Positions 6,448-39,475 of a DNA stretch of 64,000 nt are shown piece by piece (position 1 is the first letter of the stretch; every line of letters starts with the position of its first letter). Where the stretch lies: positions 22,476-86,475 of the forward strand of contig JAWAEW010000002.1 of the NCBI GenBank assembly GCA_038891035.1. The letters run 5' to 3'. Below the pieces are notes generated by a model. It was given only the letters and a program-made list of their open reading frames with translations. It did not search any database and was not told the origin of the DNA. A program made the position numbers and the translations under genes. This DNA is from Candidatus Anstonellaceae archaeon. GTDB taxonomy: Archaea; Micrarchaeota; Micrarchaeia; Anstonellales; Anstonellaceae.

Positions 6448-7485
6448 TTATGCAAGCGCCCCGACAAAACCACCTATAACTGTTTTACAGATATAGAAGA
6501 TGAAAAGAGCAGCAAGTGCAAGTGGTGGAAAATATTTTAGTCCAAAAAGTAATTTCCCCTCCGCAATTACTCCTACTAAAATAGAAGTCAATATTGCTGT
6601 TCCTACAATGATCACTATGGTAAGATCATCGATAAATTTGATGTCAAGCTTAACCTTTGGCGTGGAAAAGCCACCTATCATGCTTTGGCTGGCACCAGTG
6701 CCGATATTAGACTGTATTTTGGTGAAAACTGCAAGAAATTGAGAAGAAATTGCAAGAAGCAGTGGCAATCCAAAAACCAATATGAAAACTATAAAAATTG
6801 CATAAGTCTTGGTATTGACAATCATTTGCTTTCGCAGTTCTTCTGTTTCTCTAATTTCTTCTGCCGAAGTCTCAAGTAGATAGGCCAGCTTTCCACCTGA
6901 GCGCAAGCCGTTCTCAAAAAACAAAATTGTCCGCCGCAGGATTGAACTGTCGATTGTAGCTGTTAGTTGGCGCAATGCATCTGCAAATGATTCGCTTCCT
7001 AAAGATAAGGATGAAACATAAAGGATTTCTGACTGCAGGGGTCCAAATTCAGGCCTTGCCGCGGCTTGAAATGCAGCAAAAGGGGTCATGCCAGAGCGCA
7101 TGTTTGCTGCCACCATCAAAAGAAAATCCGGAAGGACGGCGTCCACTCTTTGAGTTCTTTCAGTTATAAGATAATAAAGGTGCATATAGATCAAGATTGC
7201 AGCAGCCAAAGCAAAGAGAATGCCCAGCCCAAAGCTTATGACAAGTTTCCCAGCCAAGGTCGGCGGATTAAGGATGGGGTATGCAGATAGGTCAAAAAAA
7301 CGGAAAATGCTGACTGGAAGAAGAGCACCAACAATTCCAAATAAGATAACTATAAGAAGACGGGAGCCAAGCCAAAGTTCTGGATTTGTTTCTATGCCAG
7401 CATAAGCAAGAAGCTGCGAGATTTTGTCTTTTGGGCGTGGCTTGAAAAATGTTGAAAATCGTTTTTCAACTAAATATTTTTTCAT
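6448..7485 (-). CDS. type II secretion/type IV pilus platform protein, TadC/FlaJ-like (T2SSF domain)
   Basis: 345 aa polytopic membrane protein with a cytoplasmic T2SSF-like segment (LPDFLLMVAANMRSGMTPFAAFQAA...). Confidence 0.6.
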   Translation of the reverse strand: MKKYLVEKRFSTFFKPRPKDKISQLLAYAGIETNPELWLGSRLLIVILFGIVGALLPVSIFRFFDLSAYPILNPPTLAGKLVISFGLGILFALAAAILIYMHLYYLITERTQRVDAVLPDFLLMVAANMRSGMTPFAAFQAAARPEFGPLQSEILYVSSLSLGSESFADALRQLTATIDSSILRRTILFFENGLRSGGKLAYLLETSAEEIRETEELRKQMIVNTKTYAIFIVFILVFGLPLLLAISSQFLAVFTKIQSNIGTGASQSMIGGFSTPKVKLDIKFIDDLTIVIIVGTAILTSILVGVIAEGKLLFGLKYFPPLALAALFIFYICKTVIGGFVGALA

Positions 7486-7492
7486 AGAACCA

Positions 7493-8407
7493 CTAATCGC
7501 TAAACAGGCTTGGTCTTTTCATTTTGACGTAAGCAATGATGGCCATCTGACCTAAAAATCCAATTCCAACAACAGCTGAAAGAACTTCTGGTGTAACACC
7601 AAGCATCCCAAATACTGAAAAAATTACGAGGACGGTTGTTCCTATAGTAGGGAGTACGGCTGCAACCATCAGATATATCAGAATTATGAAGTTGAGTTCT
7701 GCATTGAATGATTTGAAAAGCGAAAACTGGTAGTCTACCAGCAATTTGACTATGCTTCGAAGGGTAGAGGACAGATTAGCGCCTGCTCTAATTGCAGTAA
7801 CGAGTTGCCATGAGACCTTTTTGAGATAGACCGACTGAGTCTTAATGGCCATATTTTCCAGTTCTTCTAAAAGAGGACTTCCTCCCCTAACGTTATTTGC
7901 AACTTCTTTAAATGCCGGCCCTACGTACTTGTAGTTTGAGTTTCCGATGTTTTCTATCGCATTGAAAAGCGGTATTCCAGAATTCACCTGTATTAGCATA
8001 TCACGCATGACAAAAATAAGCTCATGGTCTATCTTTGCTGCAATGCTCCTTGCAATAAGGCGAGGGAAAGCCAAATGAAGCAGAAGGAAAAAAAGAAAAC
8101 TGATTGCAAAAGAAAGGAATATTATAAGACCTTTAACAGGTGAAGGAAGAGTAGGGCTCAGCGTTGCAATTACGCCCACGACAATAGATATAAGTGCGGA
8201 CCAAATTGCGGCTGAAACTGCCGCAACTCCACAATAATATTCTGCCGGAAATTCAAGACCTATAGATCTTAGGTCATATCTTATTGATGGGTAAAATGCA
8301 AGGACTTTTAAGCCGATACCTTTCAGTCGCGCTCCTAAAGTGGGGACTGATGAGATTGGTAAAAGCATGACCGGAATGCGAACCGGCTGAGTTGTCATAA
8401 GAATCAC
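7493..8407 (-). CDS. type IV pilus platform protein, TadB/FlaJ-like (T2SSF domain)
   Basis: 304 aa membrane protein with a T2SSF-like segment (IFVMRDMLIQVNSGIPLFNAIENIG...). Separate gene, 8 nt from the downstream paralog. Confidence 0.6.
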   Translation of the reverse strand: MILMTTQPVRIPVMLLPISSVPTLGARLKGIGLKVLAFYPSIRYDLRSIGLEFPAEYYCGVAAVSAAIWSALISIVVGVIATLSPTLPSPVKGLIIFLSFAISFLFFLLLHLAFPRLIARSIAAKIDHELIFVMRDMLIQVNSGIPLFNAIENIGNSNYKYVGPAFKEVANNVRGGSPLLEELENMAIKTQSVYLKKVSWQLVTAIRAGANLSSTLRSIVKLLVDYQFSLFKSFNAELNFIILIYLMVAAVLPTIGTTVLVIFSVFGMLGVTPEVLSAVVGIGFLGQMAIIAYVKMKRPSLFSD

Positions 8408-8409
8408 GG

Positions 8410-10140
8410 CTATTTTTTACTTCCAATAGCTCGCTTGGCTATTTCTAAGATTTCATTTGGCTTGCTGTAATAAAGAGACATTATTCGGCCTACTGACTCC
8501 ATATCAGAAAGCTTGTTCTCAATCATCCATCTTATAATAGTGGCCCTGTTCTTTATATCTTGGTATATTTCCTCTTTGGTCATGCCTGTATGAAGGTTAA
8601 TTTCCTTGAGGTATTTGTTTGGCTCGCCTACCATTTCAAATGTATCAGTGCGTGGGCGCCATCTGTAAATTACATTGGTTGTTATTTCCTCGTCTTTGGC
8701 ACCTGGAACTATTTCGCAAATTTCCAAGGTTCTCCTAACATTCTTCCTCCTATCACGATATTGGACTACAATAAGGTTGACTGCTTCGAGGTCAGATGGA
8801 GGAAGGCTGATTGGGGGGCTAGTAAGCCTTCTTATAGCCTGCATCCCCGTATCAGCGTGCAAAGTTGCTGCAACAGAGTGGCCTGTGTGCATAGCCTCGA
8901 ACAATACTTCAGCTTCTCTTTGCCTTCTCATTTCACCAAGCAAGATTCTATCTGGCCGCATACGAAGCGAGGTAACCATCAAATCAAGCATTGTAACTTC
9001 ACCTAAGCCTTCTGCATTTGGATTTCGAGTTAAAAGAGGTACCCAGTTCCACTGGTAATGTGGCAGCATAAGCTCTCTGGTATCCTCTATTGTGACAATA
9101 CGCTGATTTGGAGGAATAAATGATGCCAGTGCGTTCAAAGCTGTAGTTTTTCCGGATGCTGTGCCGCCTGCAACTAAGATGTTCATTTCATAATGTATTG
9201 CCTGCCACAGCATTCCTGCCATTTCCGGTGTCATGGAGTAGCCTGGTTCACCCACAAGATTTACAATTGTCCATGGATTTCTTGCAAAGCGCCTAATTGT
9301 AATTGTGTTCCCATGTGCAGAAATCGGTGCAAGAGTAGAGCAAACTCTATCTCCGGTTTCAAGCCTAGCATCCAGTATTGGTGTTAAGTTTGCAATTTGT
9401 CTCCCAACTCGGCGTGCAATTTGGGAAGAATAATTGAAGATAGATTCTTCGTCTGGCATGTAAATATTTGACTTAAGCCAGCCAAACTTGCGATGATATA
9501 CTCCAATTGGGGTTTTTGAATTGTTAATAATAATTTCCTCAAGCCAGTCATCGTGGTTGATAATCTCTATCTCTCCTAACCCAAACAACTTATGCAAAAG
9601 CATTCCAACCAGAACTTCATCAACCTCCTTTCCGAGGTGGAACTGCCGAATATAATTGGTTATCGTAAGCTTGAATTCCTCGCGTGCTTTGGCTGCTTTT
9701 TCAATATCTGAAACATCAGACTGTGCACCGGCAGGTATTGCCCGCAAAAGTTCGTCTTTTATGAGGTCCAGAAAAATCTTGGTTGCAGTACCAAACTCAA
9801 CTAAGGTCAGGATATAGTGCTTTTCTCTTTCAGTATCTAATATCATTACACTTGCTGGCACTCCATCTGCTGAAAACATATAGCTGGCCAACACCTTTCC
9901 CTTTGTTGCACCGACTTCGGGCTTTGGTGGCTCAGCCGGCAGGATCCTGAAAGATACTGTTGGCTTTTCAGTTATGCTTAATGGGTAATGCAAATCTAAG
10001 ACCCCGCCCTTTTCAAGCACTGCACAGATAAGCTCAACGGTTTCTACCGGCATGTGTAGATATTTTGAGAGAATTTCAACACTGATATTTTTTTTGCGCT
10101 GTGCAAGTGAAACAAGCTGGTCTATCTTTGTCTCAAACAT
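8410..10140 (-). CDS. type IV pilus/archaellum-family assembly ATPase (FlaI/TadA/VirB11 superfamily)
   Basis: Walker A VAGGTASGKTT, Asp box IVTIEDTRE, His box, and an N-terminal extension, as in archaeal FlaI-like ATPases. Confidence 0.85.
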   Translation of the reverse strand: MFETKIDQLVSLAQRKKNISVEILSKYLHMPVETVELICAVLEKGGVLDLHYPLSITEKPTVSFRILPAEPPKPEVGATKGKVLASYMFSADGVPASVMILDTEREKHYILTLVEFGTATKIFLDLIKDELLRAIPAGAQSDVSDIEKAAKAREEFKLTITNYIRQFHLGKEVDEVLVGMLLHKLFGLGEIEIINHDDWLEEIIINNSKTPIGVYHRKFGWLKSNIYMPDEESIFNYSSQIARRVGRQIANLTPILDARLETGDRVCSTLAPISAHGNTITIRRFARNPWTIVNLVGEPGYSMTPEMAGMLWQAIHYEMNILVAGGTASGKTTALNALASFIPPNQRIVTIEDTRELMLPHYQWNWVPLLTRNPNAEGLGEVTMLDLMVTSLRMRPDRILLGEMRRQREAEVLFEAMHTGHSVAATLHADTGMQAIRRLTSPPISLPPSDLEAVNLIVVQYRDRRKNVRRTLEICEIVPGAKDEEITTNVIYRWRPRTDTFEMVGEPNKYLKEINLHTGMTKEEIYQDIKNRATIIRWMIENKLSDMESVGRIMSLYYSKPNEILEIAKRAIGSKK

Positions 10141-10436
10141 GAAGCAAAATCGCTTTTGAATTTATTAAACTTTCTTTCCTAGCAAAAATGAGGATACTTG
10201 ATGTTGCAGTGTTCTACGGGTGAAGTCGATTTTTGCGCAAAAGCAAAAAGAGCAGTGGTTGATTGAAAACTAGGCGCCGAGCTCGTATTTGCGCTTGTAA
10301 AGCTTAGCTCGCCGATAGTTTATGATTTTCATAACAGGAAATTACCTTTGCTTCATTTCAGAGGCGATTTGCAGCATACACTCAAAAGGCTTGAAAGCGA
10401 TATAGATTTAAGATAATCGGTGCAGATATAAACATC

Positions 10437-11696
10437 ATGAGAATGACTGCAAAAGCTACATTAGCTGGGATTGCAATTGCGGCATTAATTTCATTTCCTT
10501 CATCAAAATTGAACTCGCAAATAAATGAGAATCAGATAAAAAAGAAGTTAGCAGACAAAGTTCTTGTTGAAAATTCTTCAGCTTATACTACAGAAAAATA
10601 CAAAATCTACAAAGAAGGTGTAAATTTCGTACTTTTTCCACCAGATGTAAAAGTTGAAAAAATAGAACTAAAGGAAAGAAAAGATGAAAACAAAATAACT
10701 GCCTCCGACAATACAACTGGTGGAATGAGAATTATTTATGGGGATGCTTTTTGTCAAGCATTCGTACAAAAGATTATAGAAGATTCTTTAACTGGAGGAG
10801 GGGTAGGATGGATTTCGAAAATATACCCCCTTGATTCTTTTCCTTCACACAGAAACGGAATAAACCTATTTCCTCAAGGAAGGATCATAAAAAAGACCTA
10901 TCCAAGAATTCTAATGCCCCCAAATACGGATGGCCACTATATAGCTACTCGGACTTACTATATCGAAAATATCTGGCCTCCATACCATGACAGTGTAAAT
11001 GCATATTATCAGCAAATAGCATTAAACTTGATCTTTCAGCACGGGGATAGGCCAAGTGTTTTCTTCTTTGCAGGAGATAGGGATACTACTAAGAAGGCTA
11101 CTAAAATGATTATAATAAGTATAACGCAATTTGACTCTAATGGTGTTCAGATTGTGCCGCCGGATCCAAGAGTAAGAGGCCCCCCTGTAGCGGCTGCAGA
11201 AGTAGTAAGAGATGATCACATAAATGGAACGGGAGATTTTCGGGAGATAATAATGGCTATGGGGACACTGACAGATATGCAGATTTTGGCCGATGGTAAA
11301 ATTCTCGAAGAACAGGAATTTCAAATGTTTGGAGGGATGAATGAAGATACTCTCAATTCTTTTTTTGTTCGTCCTCCGATCAAAGCAAAAGAATTCGTGA
11401 TGGGAGTAGAGGAGAAATTTGAGCTGGTGAAAGAATATAGGCTTTCACAAAACTATCCAAATCCATTCAATTCACAGACAACAATTGAGTTTTCTTTACT
11501 CAGACCAGGACGCGTAGTGATTAGAGTGTATGATATGATTGGGAGGAGAATAGCAGAGATTGTTAATGAAGAATTAAAAGATGGGACTTATCGCGTCAAC
11601 TGGAAACCACAAGCAAGTATTTCAAGTGGTACGTACATCTATGAATTGAGCAGTGATGGCTATATCGACAGGAGAAAAATGATATATATAAAATAA
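10437..11696 (+). CDS. secreted protein with C-terminal T9SS-type (Por secretion tail) sorting domain
   Basis: N-terminal signal peptide. The C-terminal 80 aa, LSQNYPNPFNSQTTIEFSL...RVYDMIGRRIAEIVNEELKDGTYRVNWK...SGTYIYEL, matches the TIGR04183/Por_Secre_tail consensus closely. Confidence 0.6.
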   Translation: MRMTAKATLAGIAIAALISFPSSKLNSQINENQIKKKLADKVLVENSSAYTTEKYKIYKEGVNFVLFPPDVKVEKIELKERKDENKITASDNTTGGMRIIYGDAFCQAFVQKIIEDSLTGGGVGWISKIYPLDSFPSHRNGINLFPQGRIIKKTYPRILMPPNTDGHYIATRTYYIENIWPPYHDSVNAYYQQIALNLIFQHGDRPSVFFFAGDRDTTKKATKMIIISITQFDSNGVQIVPPDPRVRGPPVAAAEVVRDDHINGTGDFREIIMAMGTLTDMQILADGKILEEQEFQMFGGMNEDTLNSFFVRPPIKAKEFVMGVEEKFELVKEYRLSQNYPNPFNSQTTIEFSLLRPGRVVIRVYDMIGRRIAEIVNEELKDGTYRVNWKPQASISSGTYIYELSSDGYIDRRKMIYIK

Positions 11697-11709
11697 ATTT
11701 TTTCTTTAT

Positions 11710-14700
11710 TTAGGAGTTCAGTGTTGTAATGCTAACAGTAAAACCTTGGTTGTACAATGCACGTATTTCATCTTCTGAGAGTGCTCTTTTGAATATTTGG
11801 ACTTCATCGATTATGCCTTCATAAGGCTTATTGAGTGAAGGAGAATTTCCTATAATTAGTCTTGGGTAAGTCTGGCCCAGATCTCCTGAAACATCACCAG
11901 TTGCATAAAGTACTCCGTTAATGTAAATAAAGCCGACCCCATCTTTTCTGCTTACTGTGATATGGGTCCACTCGTCTGTGGCTAATTCGATGGGCGATGA
12001 TATTACTTTATTTGCTGCAATAAAGTTCAGATAACCATCTGACAACTCAAGGGCGAAGCCAGAATTCTGAATTTGGTTACTTATGATTTGGCTGGAGATT
12101 ACTGATTTGGGCTTAACCCATAAAGAAACTGTGAAATCATCTCTGCCCTGGAGCACAGGCGATGGGACCGAAAGATGGGAGAATAGAGATGTGAAGTTGT
12201 ATGCTCCACCTATTTTACCAAATGGAGTCCAGTTTGCTGAAACATTTGCATGAAGCAGAAGAGGAGAGTAATCAACCGATATTCCTTCTACTTCTCTATA
12301 ATCGAATGGCAATGAAAGTAGCGCATCAGGAAGCTGCCTTTTTAGGCGAAGCTTGGCATTATAATTTGCAGTAATATTGCTAAATGAAGCGGATGGCTTA
12401 TAAAAGACATCAAGGTCAAGGCTGCACTTGTCTTGATATAAGCCTTTGTAGTGATTTTCGATTTCCCGTTCAGATAGAGCTCTCTTATAGAACCTTATTT
12501 CATCAATCAGTCCTCTGAAACCGTTGCTTCCTGAACTATCAGATGCACCTATAAAGAATGGGGACGATGAGTTTATCCTCAAAAGGCTGAACTGACCTGA
12601 TGCAACCGATTTATCATCAAGATAGATGTTGTATTCGCCTAATCTTCTAACAGAAACTGACACCATATGCCAATTCCCATCTGATAAATCGAGTAGATGA
12701 CTTATCTGTGAAGACTGGCCACTTCCATTTGCACTATAAAATGAGATGTTGAGGAAATTAGCAGGATTCAAAAACCAATCAATCCCCTGTGCTGCCCCAA
12801 ATTCCTGTCCTAGCTGATAAAATAGCCTTGCAAAGCTTCCTTGGCCGGTATAAGGCCTTATCCATACAGACATAGTAAAATCATTGATCTCTGTAACTGA
12901 AACATCGTCTAGATAGACTACTTGGTTGTTTAGAGGTGTATAAAACCGAAGTTCAATGACTGCATTTTGAAGTGTAGAAAATGGTTGTGTGATCCTTTCA
13001 AAAGTAGTGCTTAGCTGCTTTGTGATAAATATGTCTGCACCGGGATTCAATGAATTCCACTGCCCGGAAGGCGCCAAGTACATTTGGTTTTGCACATCAA
13101 CAATTGCATATCTAATCGCATCATTTTGAAGCTCGCCTCTCGCCCAAAACTCAAGCAAATAATTCCTGTTTCCTTTCAGTGCTGAATAAAGAGCTGAACT
13201 GTAAATATACGACGAGGGATCGCTAGAGTAGATTTTAACTGAAGTCGAGCCTGACTTTACTATGTTGTGCTCTGGCTCAAATATGCCATTTCCTTGCTTT
13301 ATCCAATTGTTGAAAAGGAAGGATTGGCTGCCTACACCTGGAGGGATAATGCAGTACTTTACAGATCCGCTTGTTCTTGTTACATTGCACACTGCATTTG
13401 GATCACAGCAGGGATGAACATCGTCACAGCGAGAATTGGTTGGGAAGCAGGTTGTGCATCGCCCATAATCTTGTATTCCCTCAAAAAAGAAGGGAAGTTT
13501 TTTTATCTTGAAAAAGTAGTCGCGAGAATAGGTTTGCTGCTCTTGTTGTGCAACTGTATTTACAAGGTCACAGAAAAGCCCCTCGCAGCATTGCGTGTCA
13601 TTAGTGCAGAGGGCACCTTGCTGACCGCATGTAGGAAGAGGAGGCGCACATCTGAAGGTTTGTTCCCCGTCAAAAAGACACCTGTTTGAGCAGCATTCTG
13701 AGTGATTCCTACAGGTATGGTTGAGAGGAAGGCAGTCCACACACTTTGAGAAATTAGCAGAGGTGCTCAGTAGATCGCAAAGCCCGGAGCAACATTGACT
13801 GTTTTCAGTGCAATTGGTGGTGCTGTTCGTTTGAATGCAAACTGAGCATATCTTTTGGGATGAGCCTGCGGGTGCTGCACAAATACTGCATGTCTGCGGG
13901 CAGTCTGAAGAAATGGTGCAGCTCTGGTTGCATCCTATTCCGCATCGTGGTTGGCTTTCTTCATCTATAAAGCATCTACCACTGCAACATTCGTTGCTGG
14001 TTCCATCTTGGCAAGAGGCAAGTAACTGCCCATTTTGAAGGCAACAGATTCCGTTTAAACAGATTGAGGGGGGGCAACAAGGGATTTTGTTGTCTCCTGA
14101 ACACGGCTGGGAAGCATTTGCGCAATTTAGGTTTGTTAATTCAGCTACATTAGTAGGATTAGAACGATCAGACTTGGCAACAAGATTAGGATTGTTTTTG
14201 GCTTCTGCTTGTATGTATAATTGAACGCTTGTACCATTTTCAAACGTCGAAGTGTTCAATGGTTCTTGCTTACGATACAAAAACAAAATTGGTATTATGT
14301 TGCCCGGCCTCTGCGCAACAAAGACATATGAAATATTAATATATGGTGTGCTGTCAGGACAATTTTGTATGCAGTATACGTTGGACCCTCGAATAACAGT
14401 TGGTGTGGGTGAAATAATTGGAGTGGGTGGTTTTTTAGGTTTGCAAACTCCATTCTCGCATCTTAATCCTATCGTTTTATCGCTATCACAGCAATCAGAA
14501 TCCTTAGTACATTGTTGCCCTCCTTGTGAGCATGCAGAACACCTTCCATTAATGCAAACTGAATTCGAACAGCAATCAGAATCTCTGAGACAGCCATAAG
14601 TCCCACGTGGCCAGCAAGGAACACACTTGCCATCTCTCATCATATAGAACTTAACTGAGCTTGAAGACGGGATTGCAGACCATGGTTGGCGCTCCTCTTC

Positions 14701-15468
14701 ACCTAAAAGGCATTTGCCGGAACAGCATTCAGAATGATAAGAACAGTTTTGCCCATTAGGAATGCATGAACATATGCCATTTATGCACATGGAACTTATA
14801 CAGCAATCAGCATCTGAGCTGCAAGGCCCGTATCCTCTTGGCCAGCATGAAACACATGTACCATTGAGGGGAGTTTCGACGAGCTTTGCAAGCCCAGAAA
14901 AAAGATTTTCTGATGATAAAAACGCCCCACCATCATTGTTGGTGCGTATAAGACATTTGGAAGAGCAGCAATCATTATTTGATTGACAGACTGCACCTTG
15001 TCCTTTGCATGTGGATGTGCTATCCCAGTGACAACCCACTGCTACACATACAGTTTCGTTATAAATGGAAGTGCATGGTAGAGATGGCCCACTGCTTACA
15101 TCATCACATGGAAATGCTGTAAAAGCATTAAATCTGCAATACCCTCCTGCAATATTGCATGCACCAGCCGGATTGTGACTTTTAGAGGCACAGTCGGCTT
15201 CATTTAGAGAAGAACAGAGAGTTGGAGCTGTACCGCTTGCACATGTACAATTGTTTGTCACTAGCTCATATCTCAGATTGCAATATCCTCGCAATTCAAA
15301 TTCGTAGCAAACCGAGGGATAATCGATCGGACCGCATCCGTCGGATGTACACCATGGGTGATTTAGGGAAGTACAGCTTACGTTAGGAGAATTTTGGTTT
15401 TGCGGCACGCAGCCAGCAAAAATGGCTGAAGAAAGCAATCCAAACAGCAACAAAGACAACATTCTCAT
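11710..15468 (-). CDS. 1252-aa surface protein: lipobox signal, repeated knottin-like 6-Cys modules, Pro/Thr linker, two C-terminal LamG_3 (ConA-like lectin) domains
   Basis: MRMLSLLLFGLLSSAIFAGC lipobox. At least 6 repeats with the pattern C-x6-C-x5-CC-x4-C-x4-C (e.g. CWPRGTYGCLRDSDCCSNSVCINGRC). Two LamG_3 signature motifs (IDEIRFYKRALSEREI and IDEVQIFKRALSEDEI). Confidence 0.7.
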   Translation of the reverse strand: MRMLSLLLFGLLSSAIFAGCVPQNQNSPNVSCTSLNHPWCTSDGCGPIDYPSVCYEFELRGYCNLRYELVTNNCTCASGTAPTLCSSLNEADCASKSHNPAGACNIAGGYCRFNAFTAFPCDDVSSGPSLPCTSIYNETVCVAVGCHWDSTSTCKGQGAVCQSNNDCCSSKCLIRTNNDGGAFLSSENLFSGLAKLVETPLNGTCVSCWPRGYGPCSSDADCCISSMCINGICSCIPNGQNCSYHSECCSGKCLLGEEERQPWSAIPSSSSVKFYMMRDGKCVPCWPRGTYGCLRDSDCCSNSVCINGRCSACSQGGQQCTKDSDCCDSDKTIGLRCENGVCKPKKPPTPIISPTPTVIRGSNVYCIQNCPDSTPYINISYVFVAQRPGNIIPILFLYRKQEPLNTSTFENGTSVQLYIQAEAKNNPNLVAKSDRSNPTNVAELTNLNCANASQPCSGDNKIPCCPPSICLNGICCLQNGQLLASCQDGTSNECCSGRCFIDEESQPRCGIGCNQSCTISSDCPQTCSICAAPAGSSQKICSVCIQTNSTTNCTENSQCCSGLCDLLSTSANFSKCVDCLPLNHTCRNHSECCSNRCLFDGEQTFRCAPPLPTCGQQGALCTNDTQCCEGLFCDLVNTVAQQEQQTYSRDYFFKIKKLPFFFEGIQDYGRCTTCFPTNSRCDDVHPCCDPNAVCNVTRTSGSVKYCIIPPGVGSQSFLFNNWIKQGNGIFEPEHNIVKSGSTSVKIYSSDPSSYIYSSALYSALKGNRNYLLEFWARGELQNDAIRYAIVDVQNQMYLAPSGQWNSLNPGADIFITKQLSTTFERITQPFSTLQNAVIELRFYTPLNNQVVYLDDVSVTEINDFTMSVWIRPYTGQGSFARLFYQLGQEFGAAQGIDWFLNPANFLNISFYSANGSGQSSQISHLLDLSDGNWHMVSVSVRRLGEYNIYLDDKSVASGQFSLLRINSSSPFFIGASDSSGSNGFRGLIDEIRFYKRALSEREIENHYKGLYQDKCSLDLDVFYKPSASFSNITANYNAKLRLKRQLPDALLSLPFDYREVEGISVDYSPLLLHANVSANWTPFGKIGGAYNFTSLFSHLSVPSPVLQGRDDFTVSLWVKPKSVISSQIISNQIQNSGFALELSDGYLNFIAANKVISSPIELATDEWTHITVSRKDGVGFIYINGVLYATGDVSGDLGQTYPRLIIGNSPSLNKPYEGIIDEVQIFKRALSEDEIRALYNQGFTVSITTLNS

Positions 15469-15497
15469 ATAGATTCCTCTATAAAACTTCCCTTTAT

Positions 15498-16991
15498 CTA
15501 TCCGCTAGAGCCACCCACACTATAATATTGTTCAAACCCGCCGTTTAATCCTGAAGATTGCTTAAGTGAAACGGCATCATAAATCACGTCGCCGCTTTCT
15601 GCTGCAAAAAACTTCAAAGTAACTTCAGATGATCCAAGTGGAAGCAGGAATTCTTTAGTGATTCGGATAAAGTCAGAGTTGACACCTGTCTCGAATAGAT
15701 GTTCTGATGAATCCCAACTTCCGTCTGCTTGAAGGTATTTTCCCTTGCTTCTGTCAAAGATAGAGTATTTGCCGTTTTGGCCTTGCGAAAGAAACTGGAG
15801 TGTATAAAATGAGTTTTCGGATAAGTAAACATTTTGATAGATATAAAAATCAACACTTGCATAGCCTTGTGGATTGGAGATCTCTGCTGCCCAATTGTTT
15901 TGTATCAAAGCAGGGCCGATGTAAACATCTTCTGGGTAGTTGTTTTCAACCACCCATGAAGGCCAAATGTTTGGAGGAATTCCATTTCTATCTTCAAAAT
16001 CTCCGTTTGAAACAAGCTCTGAGCCTTGCGGAAAGATTATTTCTGTTTCGGTGAGTGAGAAGTTATTTCGGTACATGTATTGATTTCCTGTAAATTCCAT
16101 GCAGCCTTGGCTTTTGCAGGAAAGTTTGAAGAGGGGCGTGTTCTGTCCGCCTCCTACTGTAAAATCAAGGCCATAAAGAGAATAATCACGTACTTTCATA
16201 TTTGAAGCAGGCGAATCAAGCGGAAGTACAAGAGCTCCAGATGGGCTTTTCGTATAAGATATGGAAGTATAATTTCTTGAAAGCAATCCTGAGAAATTAG
16301 AAACAAACAGAAGAATTGTGCCATCAGGATATGAAATTTGCAAGGTTGCAATATGGTTTGACACCGGTGTATTGGTGAATCTTGTTTTTGTGCCGATATT
16401 ATCTACATATTTGAGATTATAATAGAGGTTGTCAGAACCTGCCTGACCACCAGAAACAGAAAAGGCACCGATGTTGGTTGCACTTTTTGAGCAGTTTACG
16501 GTGGCGTATATTGAGATGGGCTGCCAACCCAGAGGATGGTAATAAATTATCACATCGTTTGGGCCATCGTTGCTATAAAACAGACCTCCTGACTCTGAAA
16601 TATTCATAATAAATGCATTGCTTCCGTTTATCCAAGAAACCAAAATAGCTTCAACTCCGCTATTTCTCAGATTTTCAGGTAAGGTGGCTGCATACTCATA
16701 GAGATTTGCAATTGGATGGCCTTCTTTTTTGAATGGGAGGGTAGATGAAACTGTTAAATGTATAGAAGATTGGGTTTTTCTAATATCTGCCTTTGTCCCA
16801 AGTACAGCAGCAAGGTCAGAAGATACTTGTTCTTCTATCCTTGCAATTTCAGATGGCAAGAGTTCAGTAAATGCGGTTCTTTGGCTTTTTCGCCACTCCT
16901 GCGAAAATAGAGCCATTCCGATAAGCGTAATTGACAGAATTAGTATTGATATGGTAAAAGTGAAACCTTTCGGAAGCTTTCTTTTGGTCAT
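15498..16991 (-). CDS. pilin-like protein with class III-type signal peptide and CBM4_9-like carbohydrate-binding module
   Basis: N-terminus KRKLPKG|FTFTISILILSITLIGMALF fits the [KR]G-hydrophobic prepilin pattern. NGDFE and NGGFE motifs with an aromatic-rich beta region resemble CBM_4_9. Confidence 0.45.
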   Translation of the reverse strand: MTKRKLPKGFTFTISILILSITLIGMALFSQEWRKSQRTAFTELLPSEIARIEEQVSSDLAAVLGTKADIRKTQSSIHLTVSSTLPFKKEGHPIANLYEYAATLPENLRNSGVEAILVSWINGSNAFIMNISESGGLFYSNDGPNDVIIYYHPLGWQPISIYATVNCSKSATNIGAFSVSGGQAGSDNLYYNLKYVDNIGTKTRFTNTPVSNHIATLQISYPDGTILLFVSNFSGLLSRNYTSISYTKSPSGALVLPLDSPASNMKVRDYSLYGLDFTVGGGQNTPLFKLSCKSQGCMEFTGNQYMYRNNFSLTETEIIFPQGSELVSNGDFEDRNGIPPNIWPSWVVENNYPEDVYIGPALIQNNWAAEISNPQGYASVDFYIYQNVYLSENSFYTLQFLSQGQNGKYSIFDRSKGKYLQADGSWDSSEHLFETGVNSDFIRITKEFLLPLGSSEVTLKFFAAESGDVIYDAVSLKQSSGLNGGFEQYYSVGGSSG

Positions 16992-17049
16992 TGAACCTCA
17001 ACCCTTAAGATCGCAAAAAAAGCTTAATAAATTTCCTATGAATGCCATT

Positions 17050-18090
17050 TTATTTTCCACGATACCAGCCACGAATGATAACAAAACCATAATCATTTTG
17101 AAGCTGATTGGTATTTTTTGCAAATGGGACAGTTAGAGATTGGATCTCTCCACCTCCATACAGGCATCCAGGTCTGTTGACCATGTATAAAATATTTTCA
17201 GGATTGCTGTAAAGAAGCTGCACTTCTTGATGAGAAAGAACACGGTCGTAAAGGCGCACTTCATCCAAAATGCTGTCGCTGTTGAATCCTATTTGGAGAG
17301 GGTTGTTATTACTATTTGGTGCCATGGCAAAATCATCAGTGTCTGCCGCAGTTCCATCTACATAAAGAGTAGCCACTCCTTCTATATCAAAAGTTGCAAC
17401 GATGTGATGCCAGTTGCCATCAGCAATATATGGTCCCTCCAACCATGATTCATCAGATGAAAATATGTGGAAAAAGACGTTTCCTTCTTCAGTAATGCCA
17501 ACAGAATATTTTTCCTCAAATGAAAATAATAATTGTTGATTGCCAATATTTTGACTTTTAACCCATAGAGAGACTGAAAAACTTTCTTGCTCAAAAAGAG
17601 GAGAAAACTGAACTGTTCCGTATGTTGTAGAAGAGAAATGAATGGCCCCGCCCGCTTTCCCATTTTGGACAAATATAGGGGATCCGATTAAAATCCCAAA
17701 AAGTCTGTTTGGAGTGGAGTCATAGATGATCGAACCTGCCACTTCATCAAGCTTCCAATATCCTACAAGACCATCCGCAAGCTGATTGCTAAAACCAACC
17801 ACCTCTATGCAAATTGAAGGAGAAGTCGCACTTAACACCTCTCTTATGGAAGCCGTGGTCTGTGTTAGGTCTTGTGGAGGAGAGAGTAGGCCCTTTTTTG
17901 AAAGCACTGTTGCAACATCTTGTAAGTAAGTTCTCAAAAGCTGGGTTTTAAAGTCTGAATCTTGAGTGTTGCCATAGAAAGTAAAGGCAATAAAGGTGGC
18001 CAGTATAATCATGAATATTGAGATTGCTGCATCAAGACTGAGGAATACTCCCCTTAGCCTCGAGTTAGAGATTTTCATTTTTTCTTCCAT
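17050..18090 (-). CDS. pilin-like protein with C-terminal LamG_3 lectin domain
   Basis: N-terminus SRLRG|VFLSLDAAISIFMIILATF is pilin-like. C-terminal motif ILDEVRLYDRVLSHQEVQLLY is the LamG_3 signature. Confidence 0.55.
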   Translation of the reverse strand: MEEKMKISNSRLRGVFLSLDAAISIFMIILATFIAFTFYGNTQDSDFKTQLLRTYLQDVATVLSKKGLLSPPQDLTQTTASIREVLSATSPSICIEVVGFSNQLADGLVGYWKLDEVAGSIIYDSTPNRLFGILIGSPIFVQNGKAGGAIHFSSTTYGTVQFSPLFEQESFSVSLWVKSQNIGNQQLLFSFEEKYSVGITEEGNVFFHIFSSDESWLEGPYIADGNWHHIVATFDIEGVATLYVDGTAADTDDFAMAPNSNNNPLQIGFNSDSILDEVRLYDRVLSHQEVQLLYSNPENILYMVNRPGCLYGGGEIQSLTVPFAKNTNQLQNDYGFVIIRGWYRGK

Positions 18091-27464: not shown

Positions 27465-27578
27465 GAGGGCATTAAACTCTCAAAGAATATTTAATACTTG
27501 CAGAAATTTGAATGCTGCCTTTGTGCTTTCTGGAAACATTTAAATACTTGTAAGCTGAATTTTGTTGCGGCGATCAGT

Positions 27579-28640
27579 ATGGACAGCCTTGTGAAGTCCG
27601 TGCTAGGAGAGCAAGAGCCAGCTCCGACAGAAAATTTTGGCTCAGACCAGATTAAGATTGTGACAGTTGGAGTAGGCGGCGGCGGAAACAACACTATAAA
27701 CCGCCTTATTCGCTCGGGAGTCAAGGGGTGCGAGCTAATTGCGGTGAATACCGACAGGCAGCACCTCAATATGATTCACGAGAAAGCCAAGAAAATCCTT
27801 ATCGGTAAGACTATTACCAAAGGACTTGGCGCAGGCGGATACCCAGAAACCGGTGCAAAGGCCGCAGAAATTGACAGACCACTGATAGAAAAGGAGCTTG
27901 AAGGGGCCCACTTGTGCTTTATTTGCGCAGGTATGGGCGGAGGCACAGGCACTGGAGCAGCACCTGTCATTGCAGAGATTGCAAAGGAGCAAGGTGCTAT
28001 CGTAGTTGCCATGGTGACCTATCCGTTCAACCTCGAGCGCGCAAGGCGGGCAAAGGCAGACGAAGGTATTGCAAAGCTTCGCAAGCACGTCGATTCTGTA
28101 ATAGTGCTTGACAATAACAGGCTGGTGAAACTTGTTCCAAATCTGCCGATGAATGAGGCTTTTGCAGTAGCAGACGAGATTCTTGCAAAGGCAGTCGGTG
28201 GATTAGTCTGGACAATTACACAGCCATCATTGATTAACATTGATTTTGCAGATGTCCGCTCTATTGTGCAGGGTGGAGGAGTCGGCTTCATTGCAGTAGG
28301 AGAAGGGAAAGGCACTGACAAAGTCCGCGGAGCAGCAGAAGGTGTGCTTAAGAACAAGCTGCTGGACGTGGACTATGAAGGAGCAAACGGCGCGCTGATT
28401 CACATCTCAGGCGGAGCAGATCTCACACTTGGGGATGCCATTAAAGCAGGTGAAATAATCACCGAAAAGATGGATCCGCAAGCAAATGTCAAGTGGGGTG
28501 CAAGACTCATACCTGGCTATGACGGCAAGCTTGAAATAGTCGCCATAGTGACTGGGGTGAAAGGCGCAAATGTTTTTGGTGCATCTTCAGATGAACCAAG
28601 AAAAGAAGTCTCCTACTCTGACATAGAGATAATTGGATAG
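27579..28640 (+). CDS. ftsZ: cell division GTPase FtsZ (paralog 1)
   Basis: GGGGNN tubulin signature, GGGTGTG T4 loop, NLE. Start set at MDSLVKS (ATG 27579) rather than the upstream alternative start used by the track. Confidence 0.9.
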   Translation: MDSLVKSVLGEQEPAPTENFGSDQIKIVTVGVGGGGNNTINRLIRSGVKGCELIAVNTDRQHLNMIHEKAKKILIGKTITKGLGAGGYPETGAKAAEIDRPLIEKELEGAHLCFICAGMGGGTGTGAAPVIAEIAKEQGAIVVAMVTYPFNLERARRAKADEGIAKLRKHVDSVIVLDNNRLVKLVPNLPMNEAFAVADEILAKAVGGLVWTITQPSLINIDFADVRSIVQGGGVGFIAVGEGKGTDKVRGAAEGVLKNKLLDVDYEGANGALIHISGGADLTLGDAIKAGEIITEKMDPQANVKWGARLIPGYDGKLEIVAIVTGVKGANVFGASSDEPRKEVSYSDIEIIG

Positions 28641-28856: not shown

Positions 28857-29909
28857 ATGGGGGTTGGAAATATGTTTGAAAATGCGGCAGGTTCTCGGAA
28901 CGATGAATTAATTTCAAACGAGAATATTCGTATTGCAGTCGTAGGTGTTGGGGGAGGCGGTTGCAATACTGTTGACCGCATGACAAGAAACGGCATACGC
29001 TCTGCACAAACGATTGCAATAAACACAGATCAGCTCCACCTGAAAATAGTGCAAGCCCACAAGAGAGTCTTAATTGGATCTACAATTACTAAGGGACTTG
29101 GAGCTGGAGGTTTCCCTGAAGTCGCAGAAAAATGTGCAGAAGTTTCGAAAGAAAAGCTGAGAGAAGTGCTTTCGGAGAAAGAGCTCGTCTTCGTGTGTGC
29201 AGGTATGGGCGGAGGCACAGGCACTGGCGCATCACCTGTAATTGCGCAAATTGCAAAAGAGCAAGGAGCGATCGTTGTATCTGTTGTAACGATGCCATTC
29301 AGACTTGAAAGAGCAAGGATGCAGAAGGCTTTGTGGGGACTGCAGCGCCTTGCAGCTCACTCTGATACCGTGATTGCAATTGAGAATGACCGCCTTGCAA
29401 AATATGTTCCTAATTTGCCAATCAATGAGGCATTCAACCTGGCGGATGCAATAACAAGCAAGGCAATAACAGGAATTGCGGACACCATCATGCTTCCTTC
29501 TCTTATGAACATTGATTTTGCAGACGTAAAATCTGTAATGGAAAACGGAGGCTTTGCACTCCTTTCGATGGGGGAAGGAAGAGGCCCCGACAGGATCGAC
29601 CAAGTAGTAAGAAACACTCTCGAGCAGCCTTTGCTTGACATCTCAACAGAAGGCGCAAAGGGAGCACTTTTGCACATAAGCGGAGGGCCACAGCTTACAC
29701 TTGGAGAAGGCATCCAAATTGGAGAAAAAATTTCCGAGAGCTTTGACTTGAACGCAGACGTCAAAATAGGAGCCAGGCTAGATCCATCATTAGGCGACAC
29801 GATAACCTGCGCTGCAATTATTACCGGCCTGAAGAATCCGTACGTTCAGCCGAGGCCGCCAGAAGAAGAAAAGAAAGTGATAGAGCTGGATGCAATTTCA
29901 TATCTTTAG
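28857..29909 (+). CDS. ftsZ: cell division GTPase FtsZ (paralog 2)
   Basis: GVGGGGCNTV and GGGTGTGASPVIAQIAKEQGAIVV. Distinct C-terminal region from paralog 1. Confidence 0.9.
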   Translation: MGVGNMFENAAGSRNDELISNENIRIAVVGVGGGGCNTVDRMTRNGIRSAQTIAINTDQLHLKIVQAHKRVLIGSTITKGLGAGGFPEVAEKCAEVSKEKLREVLSEKELVFVCAGMGGGTGTGASPVIAQIAKEQGAIVVSVVTMPFRLERARMQKALWGLQRLAAHSDTVIAIENDRLAKYVPNLPINEAFNLADAITSKAITGIADTIMLPSLMNIDFADVKSVMENGGFALLSMGEGRGPDRIDQVVRNTLEQPLLDISTEGAKGALLHISGGPQLTLGEGIQIGEKISESFDLNADVKIGARLDPSLGDTITCAAIITGLKNPYVQPRPPEEEKKVIELDAISYL

Positions 29910-35102: not shown

Positions 35103-35183
35103 TGGATTCACCTTGCTAAGCGTTCCTTGCCAAGCATTCTTTCGATTAAGGTTTAAAACAATATGCCCGACAAGAAAATATAA

Positions 35184-35269
35184 GCCCCTGTAGCTCATCG
35201 GTAGAGCGGTTGTCTTGTATCCATTCGCAAGAAAACAACAGGTAGCGAGTTCAATTCTCGCCGGGGGCT
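35184..35269 (+). tRNA. tRNA-Thr (anticodon UGU) with ~14-nt intron at 37/38
   Basis: Acceptor GCCCCTG/CGGGGGC, D-arm GCTC-ATCGGTAG-AGC, anticodon stem GTTGT/ACAAC, loop CTTGTA[intron]A, T-arm GCGAG-TTCAATT-CTCGC. Confidence 0.7.
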
Positions 35270-35297
35270 TTCTTTTTGTTGGCTTGATGGCAAAGAA

Positions 35298-37026: not shown

Positions 37027-38016
37027 TTACCTGAAAAGTTTTGCTAAAGATACCAGCTTTATCAGCTTGCCAAAGGGCAGGCTGGAAAGCCTGGATGAGG
37101 CTGATGAACAGAAAGCCAGCCATTTTTGGAGCTGGCGCTTGAGCGCGGCTTTCCGCAGCTTCTTTTGGCCATGGATTAGCTCAAGGGAAAGCAGAGGGGG
37201 CAGGTGCTTTTGCAGGATTTGCTTCAATCGCTCTTGATCCTCTTCTTTTGTTTTTTCAATCATCTTGATGGTTTGCTGTATTTGGTTTTCAGTAACTTTA
37301 AGCTGCTGTAAAATTTCTTCCTTGTGCTTGAGCACTATTTGCTCTGGATCACTTTCTTTTTGCCCTTTAATTTCAAGCTGCTGAGCCTGCGTGAAAAGCA
37401 GCCTGGCAAGCTCTTCCCTCTTATTGGCTTCAGCAGTTGCCTCCTGAGCTGCGCAATACAAAATAAGTGGGGTAAGCGAGTTTTGCATGATCCCATTTGC
37501 AATTGCTTGGTGGCTGTCTTGAGGCATGGTAATTTGCTGCTTCATTTTTTCTTTTTCAGTAAATGATTGGGAACGGGAGGTTTCTACTTGGGTTTCTTTC
37601 ATATCCTCATTGTAAAAGCTCCAAATTATCGGGGAGATATCCACTTCCTTTTCTTGCGAAGCCTGTTTTTGTATATTTTCAAGCACTGCTTTGCTTTTTT
37701 CTTCTATGCTTTGTGCGTTTTGGACTTCGCTCAATTTCATTGCACCTCTTACGTAGCGAGCGGCATTTTCATATCCCCATGCAAATGATGCTGCATAAAT
37801 TGCATTTTGAGCACCTGGAGTTAAAGTGGTGATAAAATCAGCTATGCCGTGCTTGCGGAAAGATTTCTCGATAACAGAAAGTGAGCCTTCAAAGTCTTTT
37901 GAATCCGAAAAAATTGGCGCCTGCTCAAGAAAAGAAGATTGGAGAAATTGCCTCTGCATTGCAGTCTGCTCTTCGTTTTCTTTCTTTTTATGCGCTTGGA
38001 GCTGGAAAACGAACAT
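37027..38016 (-). CDS. hypothetical coiled-coil protein
   Basis: 329 aa, Q/E/K-rich predicted coiled coils. No recognisable motifs. Confidence 0.3.
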   Translation of the reverse strand: MFVFQLQAHKKKENEEQTAMQRQFLQSSFLEQAPIFSDSKDFEGSLSVIEKSFRKHGIADFITTLTPGAQNAIYAASFAWGYENAARYVRGAMKLSEVQNAQSIEEKSKAVLENIQKQASQEKEVDISPIIWSFYNEDMKETQVETSRSQSFTEKEKMKQQITMPQDSHQAIANGIMQNSLTPLILYCAAQEATAEANKREELARLLFTQAQQLEIKGQKESDPEQIVLKHKEEILQQLKVTENQIQQTIKMIEKTKEEDQERLKQILQKHLPPLLSLELIHGQKKLRKAALKRQLQKWLAFCSSASSRLSSLPFGKLIKLVSLAKLFR

Positions 38017-38156: not shown

Positions 38157-38256
38157 TGCGGAGAGGAGGATTTGTTCTGCTATAATTGAACCCCCGCAGC
38201 CACTAGGGCACAGGGTCCTAAGCCCTGCGCATTTGACCAGGCTCTGCCATCTCCGC
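38157..38256 (-). tRNA. tRNA-Leu (anticodon UAG) with ~14-nt non-canonical intron in the T-loop
   Basis: Acceptor GCGGAGA/TCTCCGC, anticodon arm CAGGG-CTTAGGA-CCCTG, long variable arm. T-stem GGGGG...CCTCC encloses 21 nt (TTCAATT plus a 14-nt insert) instead of a 7-nt loop. The upstream half is closely similar to the intron-less tRNA-Leu at 42253. Confidence 0.55.
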
Positions 38257-38305: not shown

Positions 38306-39475
38306 TTGGTGAGAAAGATGAAGGATATCATTCTGCTGGTAGTCCTTTTCCTTGCTTTTGGCTGCGTGCAACAACAGACCCAGCTGCAAGTAAGCGAACA
38401 GCCACAGATAATGCCTGCTAACGAGACAAAAATCCAAAATCAGACAAAGGTAGAAGAGATATGCACAGGCAATATTGTGCAGAAGGACGGCTGTTACCTT
38501 GAACTTGCCGCAAAAGAGAAAAATCCAGAGTGGTGCAAGCAAATATATTCTGTAGACAAGACCGATGTTTGCTATAGTATGTTTGCAAACGAGAGTATGC
38601 AGTACTGTGAAAAAGTACTTCAAAAAGAGCTCAGAGAAATTTGCCTGACAGAGAACGCCAAAAAACTAAAAGATGAAAAGATCTGCTTGAGGATAGAAGA
38701 CGCCAAAAAGAGGGCCTCATGCCTTGAGCAGATTTTGCCTCATTGTATGCTGCTTAATGTGGAGGAAAGACCTCTCTGCTTTGCGCTTGAAAAGAAAGAT
38801 TATATGGAATGTCAAGGAGATTTTGCCTGCCTTCTGGCATATGCAAGGAACACCTCTGACCAGGCCGCCTGCTATGCGATGAAGGAGGAGAGAGAAAGGT
38901 ACTTCTGCCTTGCAGTCATCAAGCAAGACCCCTCTGTTTGCACACAGGCAAGCTTGGCGGCAATAAAGGATTGGTGCGTACAAAAATCAGCAGAGGAGCT
39001 TGACAGAATTGAAGCTTGCGACCTCATAACTGCGGGAACCATTTACATGGATGGCTGCTACTTTTATTTTGCTGCAAAAAAGAAGGACAGCACAATATGC
39101 ATGAAGGCTTCCCGTGAGGAAAAGAGGGATGAATGCCTGATAAATTATGCCATAAGCACAAGCGATAGCTCAGTGTGCAAAAATGTAATTGAATCTACTG
39201 CAAGGATATCATGCTATTACAAATCCGCAAAGGAAAATAGGATGCCATCGCTTTGCAACCCGCTTTCTACTGGCCAGCTGAAAAGGGAATGCTATTCACT
39301 CAGCATATTTTCAGAGTATGGTCCACTGGCTTCTGATTGCTATTTTGTAGAAAACCAAGAATGGAAAGATAAGTGCTTTAGGGAAGCTGCAATAAAGAGT
39401 TCAAATGCGAGTCTGTGTGATATGATAAGCCCTGGCTCGGATAAAGATTATTGCGAGGACATATTAGGAGGCTAG
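38306..39475 (+). CDS. cysteine-rich repeat lipoprotein (novel ~35-aa repeat)
   Basis: Signal peptide with lipobox LAFGC. About 9 degenerate repeats of the form DGCY-x-E/F-AAK-x6-C-x-Q/I...D-x-C. Confidence 0.5.
   Translation: MVRKMKDIILLVVLFLAFGCVQQQTQLQVSEQPQIMPANETKIQNQTKVEEICTGNIVQKDGCYLELAAKEKNPEWCKQIYSVDKTDVCYSMFANESMQYCEKVLQKELREICLTENAKKLKDEKICLRIEDAKKRASCLEQILPHCMLLNVEERPLCFALEKKDYMECQGDFACLLAYARNTSDQAACYAMKEERERYFCLAVIKQDPSVCTQASLAAIKDWCVQKSAEELDRIEACDLITAGTIYMDGCYFYFAAKKKDSTICMKASREEKRDECLINYAISTSDSSVCKNVIESTARISCYYKSAKENRMPSLCNPLSTGQLKRECYSLSIFSEYGPLASDCYFVENQEWKDKCFREAAIKSSNASLCDMISPGSDKDYCEDILGG

Follow-up and report, generated by a model that had tools for sequence, protein, structure and literature searches.

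We analysed a window of 64,000 nucleotides from a Candidatus Anstonellaceae archaeon (contig JAWAEW010000002.1), a lineage placed in the class Micrarchaeia of the DPANN archaea. On its forward strand lies the gene studied here, which encodes a cysteine-rich protein of 385 residues: behind a short signal peptide and a flexible tether, a helical domain is built from about 13 periods of a 26-residue repeat with two cysteines each. This is a new repeat family within the known class of disulfide-stapled α-solenoid surface proteins, and no new fold class. On balance, we incline to read the protein as a structural scaffold or spacer of the envelope, tethered at the Micrarchaeota cell surface and stapled by disulfides. 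DPANN archaea depend on their cell surfaces, and almost none of their envelope proteins has an assigned function; for this one, conservation and synteny hold in all of the Micrarchaeota loci examined, its predicted fold is confident and a clear covalent design can be read in it. The gene, its folded domain and the two units referred to below are located as follows.

38318..39475, + strand: Cys-repeat surface protein gene, 385 aa, with an ATG start and a TAG stop at 39473-39475
38462..39472, + strand: α-solenoid ectodomain, aa 49-385, with 28 Cys in about 13 periods (from the Cys spacing, the unit profile and the AlphaFold2 model)
38483..38560, + strand: canonical unit 1, KDGCYLELAAKEKNPEWCKQIYSVDK, aa 56-81 (unit profile i-E 2.3e-8)
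39047..39124, + strand: canonical unit 9, MDGCYFYFAAKKKDSTICMKASREEK, aa 244-269 (unit profile i-E 6.1e-8)

The protein contains 29 cysteines (7.5%), with Cys16 in the lipobox and the other 28 between residues 49 and 379. After the lipobox cysteine, the successive spacings mostly alternate between 14 and 12 residues, hence a period of about 26 residues with two cysteines in each. Indeed, 12 pairs of cysteines are found at a lag of 26 residues, whereas 2000 shuffled sequences averaged 1.9 pairs and never exceeded 9; a lag of 35 gives a single pair. The approximately 13 periods correspond to 14 cysteine pairs; eight of the periods are canonical (x3-C-x13-C-x8, i.e. C-x13-C) and five are shortened or degenerate. 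A profile hidden Markov model (HMM) of the 26-residue unit, trained solely on 286 units from other, multi-repeat proteins, recognizes 13 segments of the protein, nine of them with an independent E-value (i-E) below 0.01, for a total of 101 bits; 200 shuffled sequences gave a mean of 1.3 bits and a maximum of 6.2 bits. The family-wide consensus of the unit is [KR]-D-x-C-[YLIF]-x2-[VIL]-A-x4-[DN]-x-S-[LI]-C-[ED]-K-I-x-D-x3. A preliminary description of this DNA had already recognized a recurring cysteine-containing motif, and its two quoted examples, units 1 and 9 respectively, turn out to be the two most canonical units of the array. Its estimate of about nine repeats of about 35 residues has to be revised to the approximately 13 shorter periods given above; the motif string that it proposed covers one period plus the first cysteine of the next.

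All of the repeat cysteines are invariant or nearly so in an alignment of 18 close orthologs. Among 121 relatives, conservation amounts to 91-100% in the columns C73 to C379 and to 81% at C59, with a poor alignment at C49. The number of cysteines in the ectodomain is even in 107 of these 121 relatives, mostly 28 or 26, and the 26-cysteine variants lack C49 and C59 together: both residues are present in 92 relatives, both are absent from 23 and only six are discordant, while C59 is absent with C73 present in 20. The array opens with a cysteine of the short-helix type (C49) and closes with one of the long-helix type (C379), and therefore consists of 14 complete short-to-long modules. Helix geometry alone does not separate the two possible pairings of these cysteines. 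Conservation, parity, composition, co-loss and phase taken together favour 14 sequential disulfides, each probably linking a short helix to the next long helix. The pairs would be 49-59, 73-85, 97-109, 123-135, 143-154, 165-171 and 185-197 in the first half of the array, and 208-220, 234-247, 261-273, 287-299, 313-325, 341-353 and 367-379 in the second.

The AlphaFold2 model computed from the 18-sequence alignment has a mean predicted local distance difference test score (pLDDT) of 87, with values of 85-98 across residues 50-385 and below 50 in the tether (residues 14-43). The modelled ectodomain is all-α and very regular, with 14 long helices alternating with 13 short helices. In a canonical period the long helix spans about 15 residues, against 9-13 in a shortened one, and in most of the long helices the cysteine is the seventh residue; the short helices comprise 4-6 residues, with the cysteine usually in fourth position. 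A transmembrane (TM)-anchored ortholog (P0040), modelled from a 36-sequence alignment, shows the same architecture with a pLDDT of 88.5, preceded by a TM helix and a disordered linker. Comparison with the PDB using Foldseek gave a best E-value of 0.012 at a TM-score of about 0.2. Against viral models the best E-value was 3e-3, for Sel1 or TPR proteins of giant viruses, with TM-scores of at most 0.3. The weak fold matches include the periplasmic TPR scaffolds BamD, PilF, LpoP, YbgF and BepA. Since these structure comparisons gave weak matches only, we regard the predicted fold as an ordinary α/α solenoid to which no solved structure is closely related.

The N-terminus would provide the means of holding this solenoid at the membrane, and comprises the following elements.

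38318..38365, + strand: signal peptide MKDIILLVVLFLAFG-C, aa 1-16, with the predicted lipidated Cys16 as the first mature residue
38351-38365, + strand: lipobox L-A-F-G-C
38366..38461, + strand: flexible tether, aa 17-48, in which Q, P, E and T abound; N-x-T sequons at N35 and N41, pLDDT below 50 over residues 14-43

Ahead of Cys16, the segment MK-DIILLVVLFLAF combines a basic n-region and a hydrophobic h-region, a layout that recurs in 17 of the 18 close orthologs. The G-C of the lipobox is likewise kept in 17 of the 18. Lipobox variants seen in orthologs are LFGC, LLGC, FSGC, FAGC and SFGC. A motif of the LAFGC type presumably satisfies the looser, PROSITE-style lipobox rule. Heuristic classification of the 121 relatives distinguishes two types of anchor. 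In the lipobox type (71 of 121, about 60%), a short signal peptide closes in [GAS]-C; in the TM type (50 of 121), a cytoplasmic tail of 10-100 residues precedes a TM helix and there is no lipobox cysteine. Proteins of the lipobox type carry exactly one cysteine more than those of the TM type, typically 29 compared with 28. In the relatives, the linker that follows the anchor has a median length of 33-34 residues, is rich in P, T, Q, E and N, and contains at least one N-x-S/T sequon in 93 of 117 proteins. Judging from the signal peptide or TM anchor and from the disordered, sequon-bearing linker, the repeat domain would thus be an exported, membrane-tethered ectodomain located outside the cell.

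A word-indexed protein search (E ≤ 0.001) returned 18 proteins, namely this one and 17 full-length orthologs of 382-413 residues that share 27-55% identity; those labelled with an organism are all Micrarchaeota or Anstonellaceae. A 78-residue three-unit profile found one protein in the word-indexed search, owing to the word index. We searched 1.84 billion cluster representatives exhaustively with an HMM and obtained 5,662 matches at E ≤ 1e-3; 1,791 of them reach E ≤ 1e-10 and 189 reach E ≤ 1e-30, and the best 150 were inspected. These best 150 matches are of two kinds: proteins of about 380-450 residues matched in a single stretch, which are the orthologs, and proteins of 500-970 residues matched in several stretches, in which cysteine spacings of 14 (457 counts) and 12 (385 counts) dominate. 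The search of metagenomes proposed in the preliminary description thus places the repeat in thousands of uncharacterized metagenomic proteins. The named orthologs of the TM type also belong to Micrarchaeota, and a pattern scan over one genome per species gave 13 loci, all from Micrarchaeota (9-sequence alignment). In every locus long enough, and for both types of anchor, the repeat gene is convergent with rpsB, which itself leads the rpoN-S9-L13-L18e cluster.

Conservation across the 121 relatives is almost confined to the structural consensus of the repeat and to the unit-specific residues Y243, P310 and W349. The consensus positions comprise the Cys, the D at -2, the Y at +1 and the A at +5, as well as the I of the short helix. 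Close orthologs of the lipobox type share one longer motif.

39236..39265, + strand: NRMPSLCNPL, aa 307-316, the longest conserved non-repeat motif among close lipobox-type orthologs

In the 18-ortholog alignment (A1), P310 and C313 never vary, while N307, S311, L312 and N314 reach a conservation of at least 90%; P310 is kept in 88% of the 121 relatives. Used as a search pattern, this motif retrieved Micrarchaeota loci only.

The long multi-repeat proteins are of less certain origin. The neighbouring genes of one of them (P0030), with an archaeal-type NMN adenylyltransferase, suggest an archaeal source, and those of two others (P0087 and P0116) are ambiguous as to the domain of life. In addition, two metagenomic relatives combine the 26-residue repeat array with other modules: P0166 carries an archaeal signal-peptidase-I-like domain (TIGR02228, 1e-7) at its N-terminus, and in P0137 the array occurs with a weak C-terminal CarboxypepD_reg/SdrD_B-like match that lies below the Pfam cut-off. 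A DsbD_TM gene (locus L021, 1365-2075) is found 6 kb from P0030, which is 927 residues long.

The preliminary description could not assign the repeat to any known family, and this holds for Pfam, NCBIfam and PDB sequence profiles. The protein has no Pfam match at E ≤ 10 and no real match in NCBIfam; searches of Pfam and NCBIfam with 54 relatives gave scattered chance matches with no consistent family, and ten long repeat proteins gave no repeat-family match at E ≤ 0.01. PDB sequence profiles gave no match at E ≤ 10, with either the full-length or the three-unit profile, and literature searches found nothing specific on such a repeat in DPANN or Micrarchaeota. It is possible that InterPro holds an entry for the repeat outside Pfam and NCBIfam.

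Several established families were considered in turn. The preliminary description had named Sel1 or TPR, with incidental cysteines, as families onto which the repeat might map. No such mapping by sequence was found, and the cysteines are not incidental, since they are nearly invariant across the 121 relatives. The Sel1-like repeat (PF08238) has a period of about 36-44 residues, compared with 26 here, and gave no match at E ≤ 10 for the protein or the 54 relatives. Neither the 34-residue helix-turn-helix of TPR, nor a match to TPR profiles, nor a close superposition was found, and the PDB profile search, which spanned the HcpB and HcpC sequences, gave no match to them at E ≤ 10. The protein does not resemble an archaeal S-layer protein either (e.g. 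PF05123), given the absence of a Pfam match and its 7.5% of cysteine; the known Micrarchaeota S-layer protein, SLP_Mh, differs in being Cys-poor (101 kDa, membrane anchor unresolved; bioRxiv 10.1101/2021.04.28.441871).

The closest parallel in design is provided by the Sel1-like proteins HcpB and HcpC of Helicobacter (PDB entries 1klx and 1ouv). As is predicted for the repeat protein, they are secreted or extracytoplasmic α/α-repeat solenoids, and both have two conserved cysteines per repeat. In the Hcp proteins, the end of each repeat is tied by a disulfide to the beginning of the following one (PMC3851747), and this matches the pairing favoured here. The repeat protein differs from them by its shorter period of 26 residues, by the pairing of a long helix with a short one, by its archaeal host and by its lipobox or TM anchor. 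Also among the closest known systems are the periplasmic TPR-type scaffolds BamD/YfiO, PilF, LpoP, YbgF/CpoB and the TPR domain of BepA, several of which are bacterial lipoproteins. In Helicobacter pylori, the middle region of CagY displays tandem α-helical repeat modules on a surface structure (PMC2581425). Compared on the basis of the literature description, its modules are unrelated to the present repeat in length and sequence, and CagY is part of a bacterial type IV secretion system. The CagY modules reportedly carry conserved cysteines. The nearest families in repeat length are the PBS-lyase HEAT-like repeat and the leucine-rich repeat variant (LRV), with periods of about 24-30 residues made of a long and a short helix. 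These are cytoplasmic and are not known to have a conserved cysteine pair, in contrast to the repeat protein, which for its part has no Pfam match to them. A remote kinship with such a short-period helical repeat, for example PBS-HEAT or LRV, is possible.

How might such a protein work? We propose, and for the function above all this is a proposal, that it would be exported by its Sec-type signal peptide and anchored at the outer face of the membrane, by a lipid-modified Cys16 in this lineage and by a TM helix in sister lineages. A disordered, glycosylatable tether of about 32 residues would then separate the anchor from the folded domain, which would form a rigid α-solenoid. Its approximately 13 periods, 26 residues long, would each have a long helix followed by a short one. 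Fourteen sequential staples, from each short helix to the next long helix and enclosing loops of 6-13 residues, would lock this solenoid, and its repeat surface would be offered for protein-protein contacts between the membrane and the S-layer, in the manner of bacterial periplasmic TPR/Sel1 lipoproteins. The structural consensus is conserved, the length is constant, the window holds no second copy of the gene (the search covered the window only) and the genomic position is fixed, all of which argue for a structural component of the envelope over an enzyme or a variable adhesin. That the protein may serve as a stalk for SLP_Mh is an attractive if speculative idea. More ambitiously, the 26-residue two-cysteine unit could represent a large uncatalogued family (5,662 cluster representatives, the best 150 inspected), with the orthologs of about 400 residues and 14 disulfides as a core envelope component across Micrarchaeota, such as an S-layer anchor or stalk or a host-contact scaffold; we regard this combined view as speculative and unlikely. 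Defining the family would improve the annotation of many 'hypothetical' surface proteins, give a concrete candidate for work on the envelope, the S-layer and host contact in cultivated Micrarchaeota co-cultures, and supply a test substrate for the biogenesis of archaeal lipoproteins and extracellular disulfides. It overturns no existing concept.

Several observations weigh against the scaffold reading and are best considered together with its rivals. As regards the disulfides, the co-loss signal comes from one pair and from phylogenetically related sequences, the interior pairs being uninformative because their losses are too rare. C208 (nt 38939-38941) is replaced by S, A or Y in 11 relatives in which its neighbours 197 and 220 are kept, a substitution that misfits a simple pairwise loss; it may reflect an alignment shift of a few residues, as in one relative (P0018). 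No disulfide-forming enzyme was seen among the approximately 30 open reading frames scanned in the window. The cysteines might instead be metal ligands or redox-active thiols in an extracellular metal-binding, Fe-S (iron-sulfur) or thiol-buffer protein, for which their abundance and complete conservation could be invoked, as could the lack of a Dsb-like gene in the scanned part of the window and the hot-spring source of these archaea (PMC12892359), where extracellular disulfides would be harder to form if the habitats are low in oxygen. Yet the protein contains no CxxC or CxxCH motif and a single histidine, and it matches no metal-binding or Fe-S family in Pfam. The favoured partners lie on neighbouring helices in every period, without the clusters of four cysteines expected for metal sites; the cysteines occur in even numbers, and a clean loss of the terminal pair leaves its neighbours in place. 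We consider this explanation very improbable. The lipid anchor raises a question of its own. At its -1 (G) and +1 (C) positions the lipobox fits the consensus [L/V/I]-3 [A/S/T/V/I]-2 [G/A/S]-1 C+1 quoted in PMC12462473, whereas A at -3 and F at -2 depart from its strict form, and for that reason lipidation stays a prediction: of the lipoprotein claimed in the preliminary description, the LAFGC N-terminus of lipoprotein type stands, with its G-C in 17 of 18 orthologs, and the lipid modification is only predicted. The G-C could be incidental, and the hydrophobic segment either a signal anchor that stays uncleaved or a signal peptide removed in the ordinary way, all the more so as about 40% of the relatives use a plain TM anchor without the cysteine. 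To our knowledge, lipidation has never been demonstrated in Micrarchaeota. On the other hand, G-C directly follows the h-region in all but one of the 18 close orthologs, the one extra cysteine of the lipobox type is what would be expected if this residue has a separate role, and according to predictions lipobox proteins are prevalent in DPANN, where the lipidation candidate AliA (arCOG02177) is reported 'with some gaps' (PMC12462473). An unlipidated protein thus seems improbable to us, less so than the metal or thiol explanation.

The main rival concerns the function itself. The repeat protein shares 41-50% identity between genomes in which its ribosomal neighbours share 63-78%, and this faster divergence, which also counts against a purely structural component, would fit a partner-specific or host-specific binder. 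The solenoid could then be a host-attachment adhesin, which binds a surface component of a host archaeon and mediates the episymbiotic contact typical of DPANN: a surface location is predicted, solenoids made of repeats serve as binding modules, the residues at the surface vary, and most Micrarchaeota live in association with hosts (PMC12892359). However, adhesins usually vary in copy number and repeat number, whereas this protein has a single copy in the window, a fixed length and cysteine skeleton, and the same genomic position in every locus examined. It carries no lectin or immunoglobulin-like module, and the Anstonellales, among which the gene occurs, have an expanded biosynthetic capacity that has been tied by its authors to a weaker dependence on hosts (PMC12892359). 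We hold an adhesin to be unlikely, while giving it more weight than the two other rivals, and retain the envelope scaffold as the preferred reading.

As for the gene itself, the open reading frame at 38306..39475 on the + strand noted in the preliminary description is real and appears in the list of open reading frames of the window, its 38306 boundary being an in-frame TTG upstream of the first in-frame ATG at 38318. The latter is preceded by a putative ribosome-binding site.

38308..38313, + strand: Shine-Dalgarno-like GGTGAG, 4 nt upstream of the ATG at 38318, read from the sequence

The NCBI protein QXN37_00925, from a Ca. Anstonellaceae metagenome-assembled genome, has 385 residues, begins with MKDII and is 100% identical. 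Because of the GGTGAG site and of this gene call, ATG 38318 is likely to be the start rather than TTG 38306, and residues are numbered from it throughout.

The surrounding genes are archaeal, and encode ribosomal protein S2, RpoN, S9, L13, L18e, EF-1alpha and two FtsZ paralogs. The TAG stop of the repeat gene (39473-39475) overlaps that of the convergent rpsB on the minus strand (39472-39474) within a CTAG palindrome, so that there is no intergenic spacer between the two genes. On the other side, a divergent gene (37027-38016, minus strand) encodes a hypothetical protein of 329 residues without a signal peptide or Pfam match. Orthologs with 34-49% identity to it occupy the same position in three Micrarchaeota loci of the lipobox type (L001, L003 and L004), and it is absent from a locus of the TM type (L020). 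Between this gene and the repeat gene, in divergent orientation and 62 nt upstream of the ATG of the latter, lies a tRNA missed by ARAGORN (38157-38256, minus strand; Rfam RF00005, 43.7 bits, E 4e-8). Its anticodon loop CUUAGGA points to Leu(UAG), and its variable arm is long; an insertion of 16 nt in the T-loop region is probably a non-canonical intron. The tRNA-Thr(UGU) found by ARAGORN at 35183-35270 (+ strand) is, at 88 nt, above the standard length and may also hold an intron.

Further away, a type IV pilus-like cluster in the region 6448-18090 includes two T2SSF membrane proteins and a T2SSE ATPase. Beside it are encoded a 1252-residue protein rich in LamG/ConA-like domains (11710-15468), a 346-residue LamG protein (17050-18090) and a 419-residue protein with a weak Por_Secre_tail match (10437-11696); the LamG and neighbouring surface proteins of this region may be more plausible adhesin candidates than the repeat protein. 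Finally, it should be noted that the two FtsZ paralogs, each with Tubulin and FtsZ_C domains, are encoded about 200 nt apart on the + strand (27498-28640 and 28857-29909).

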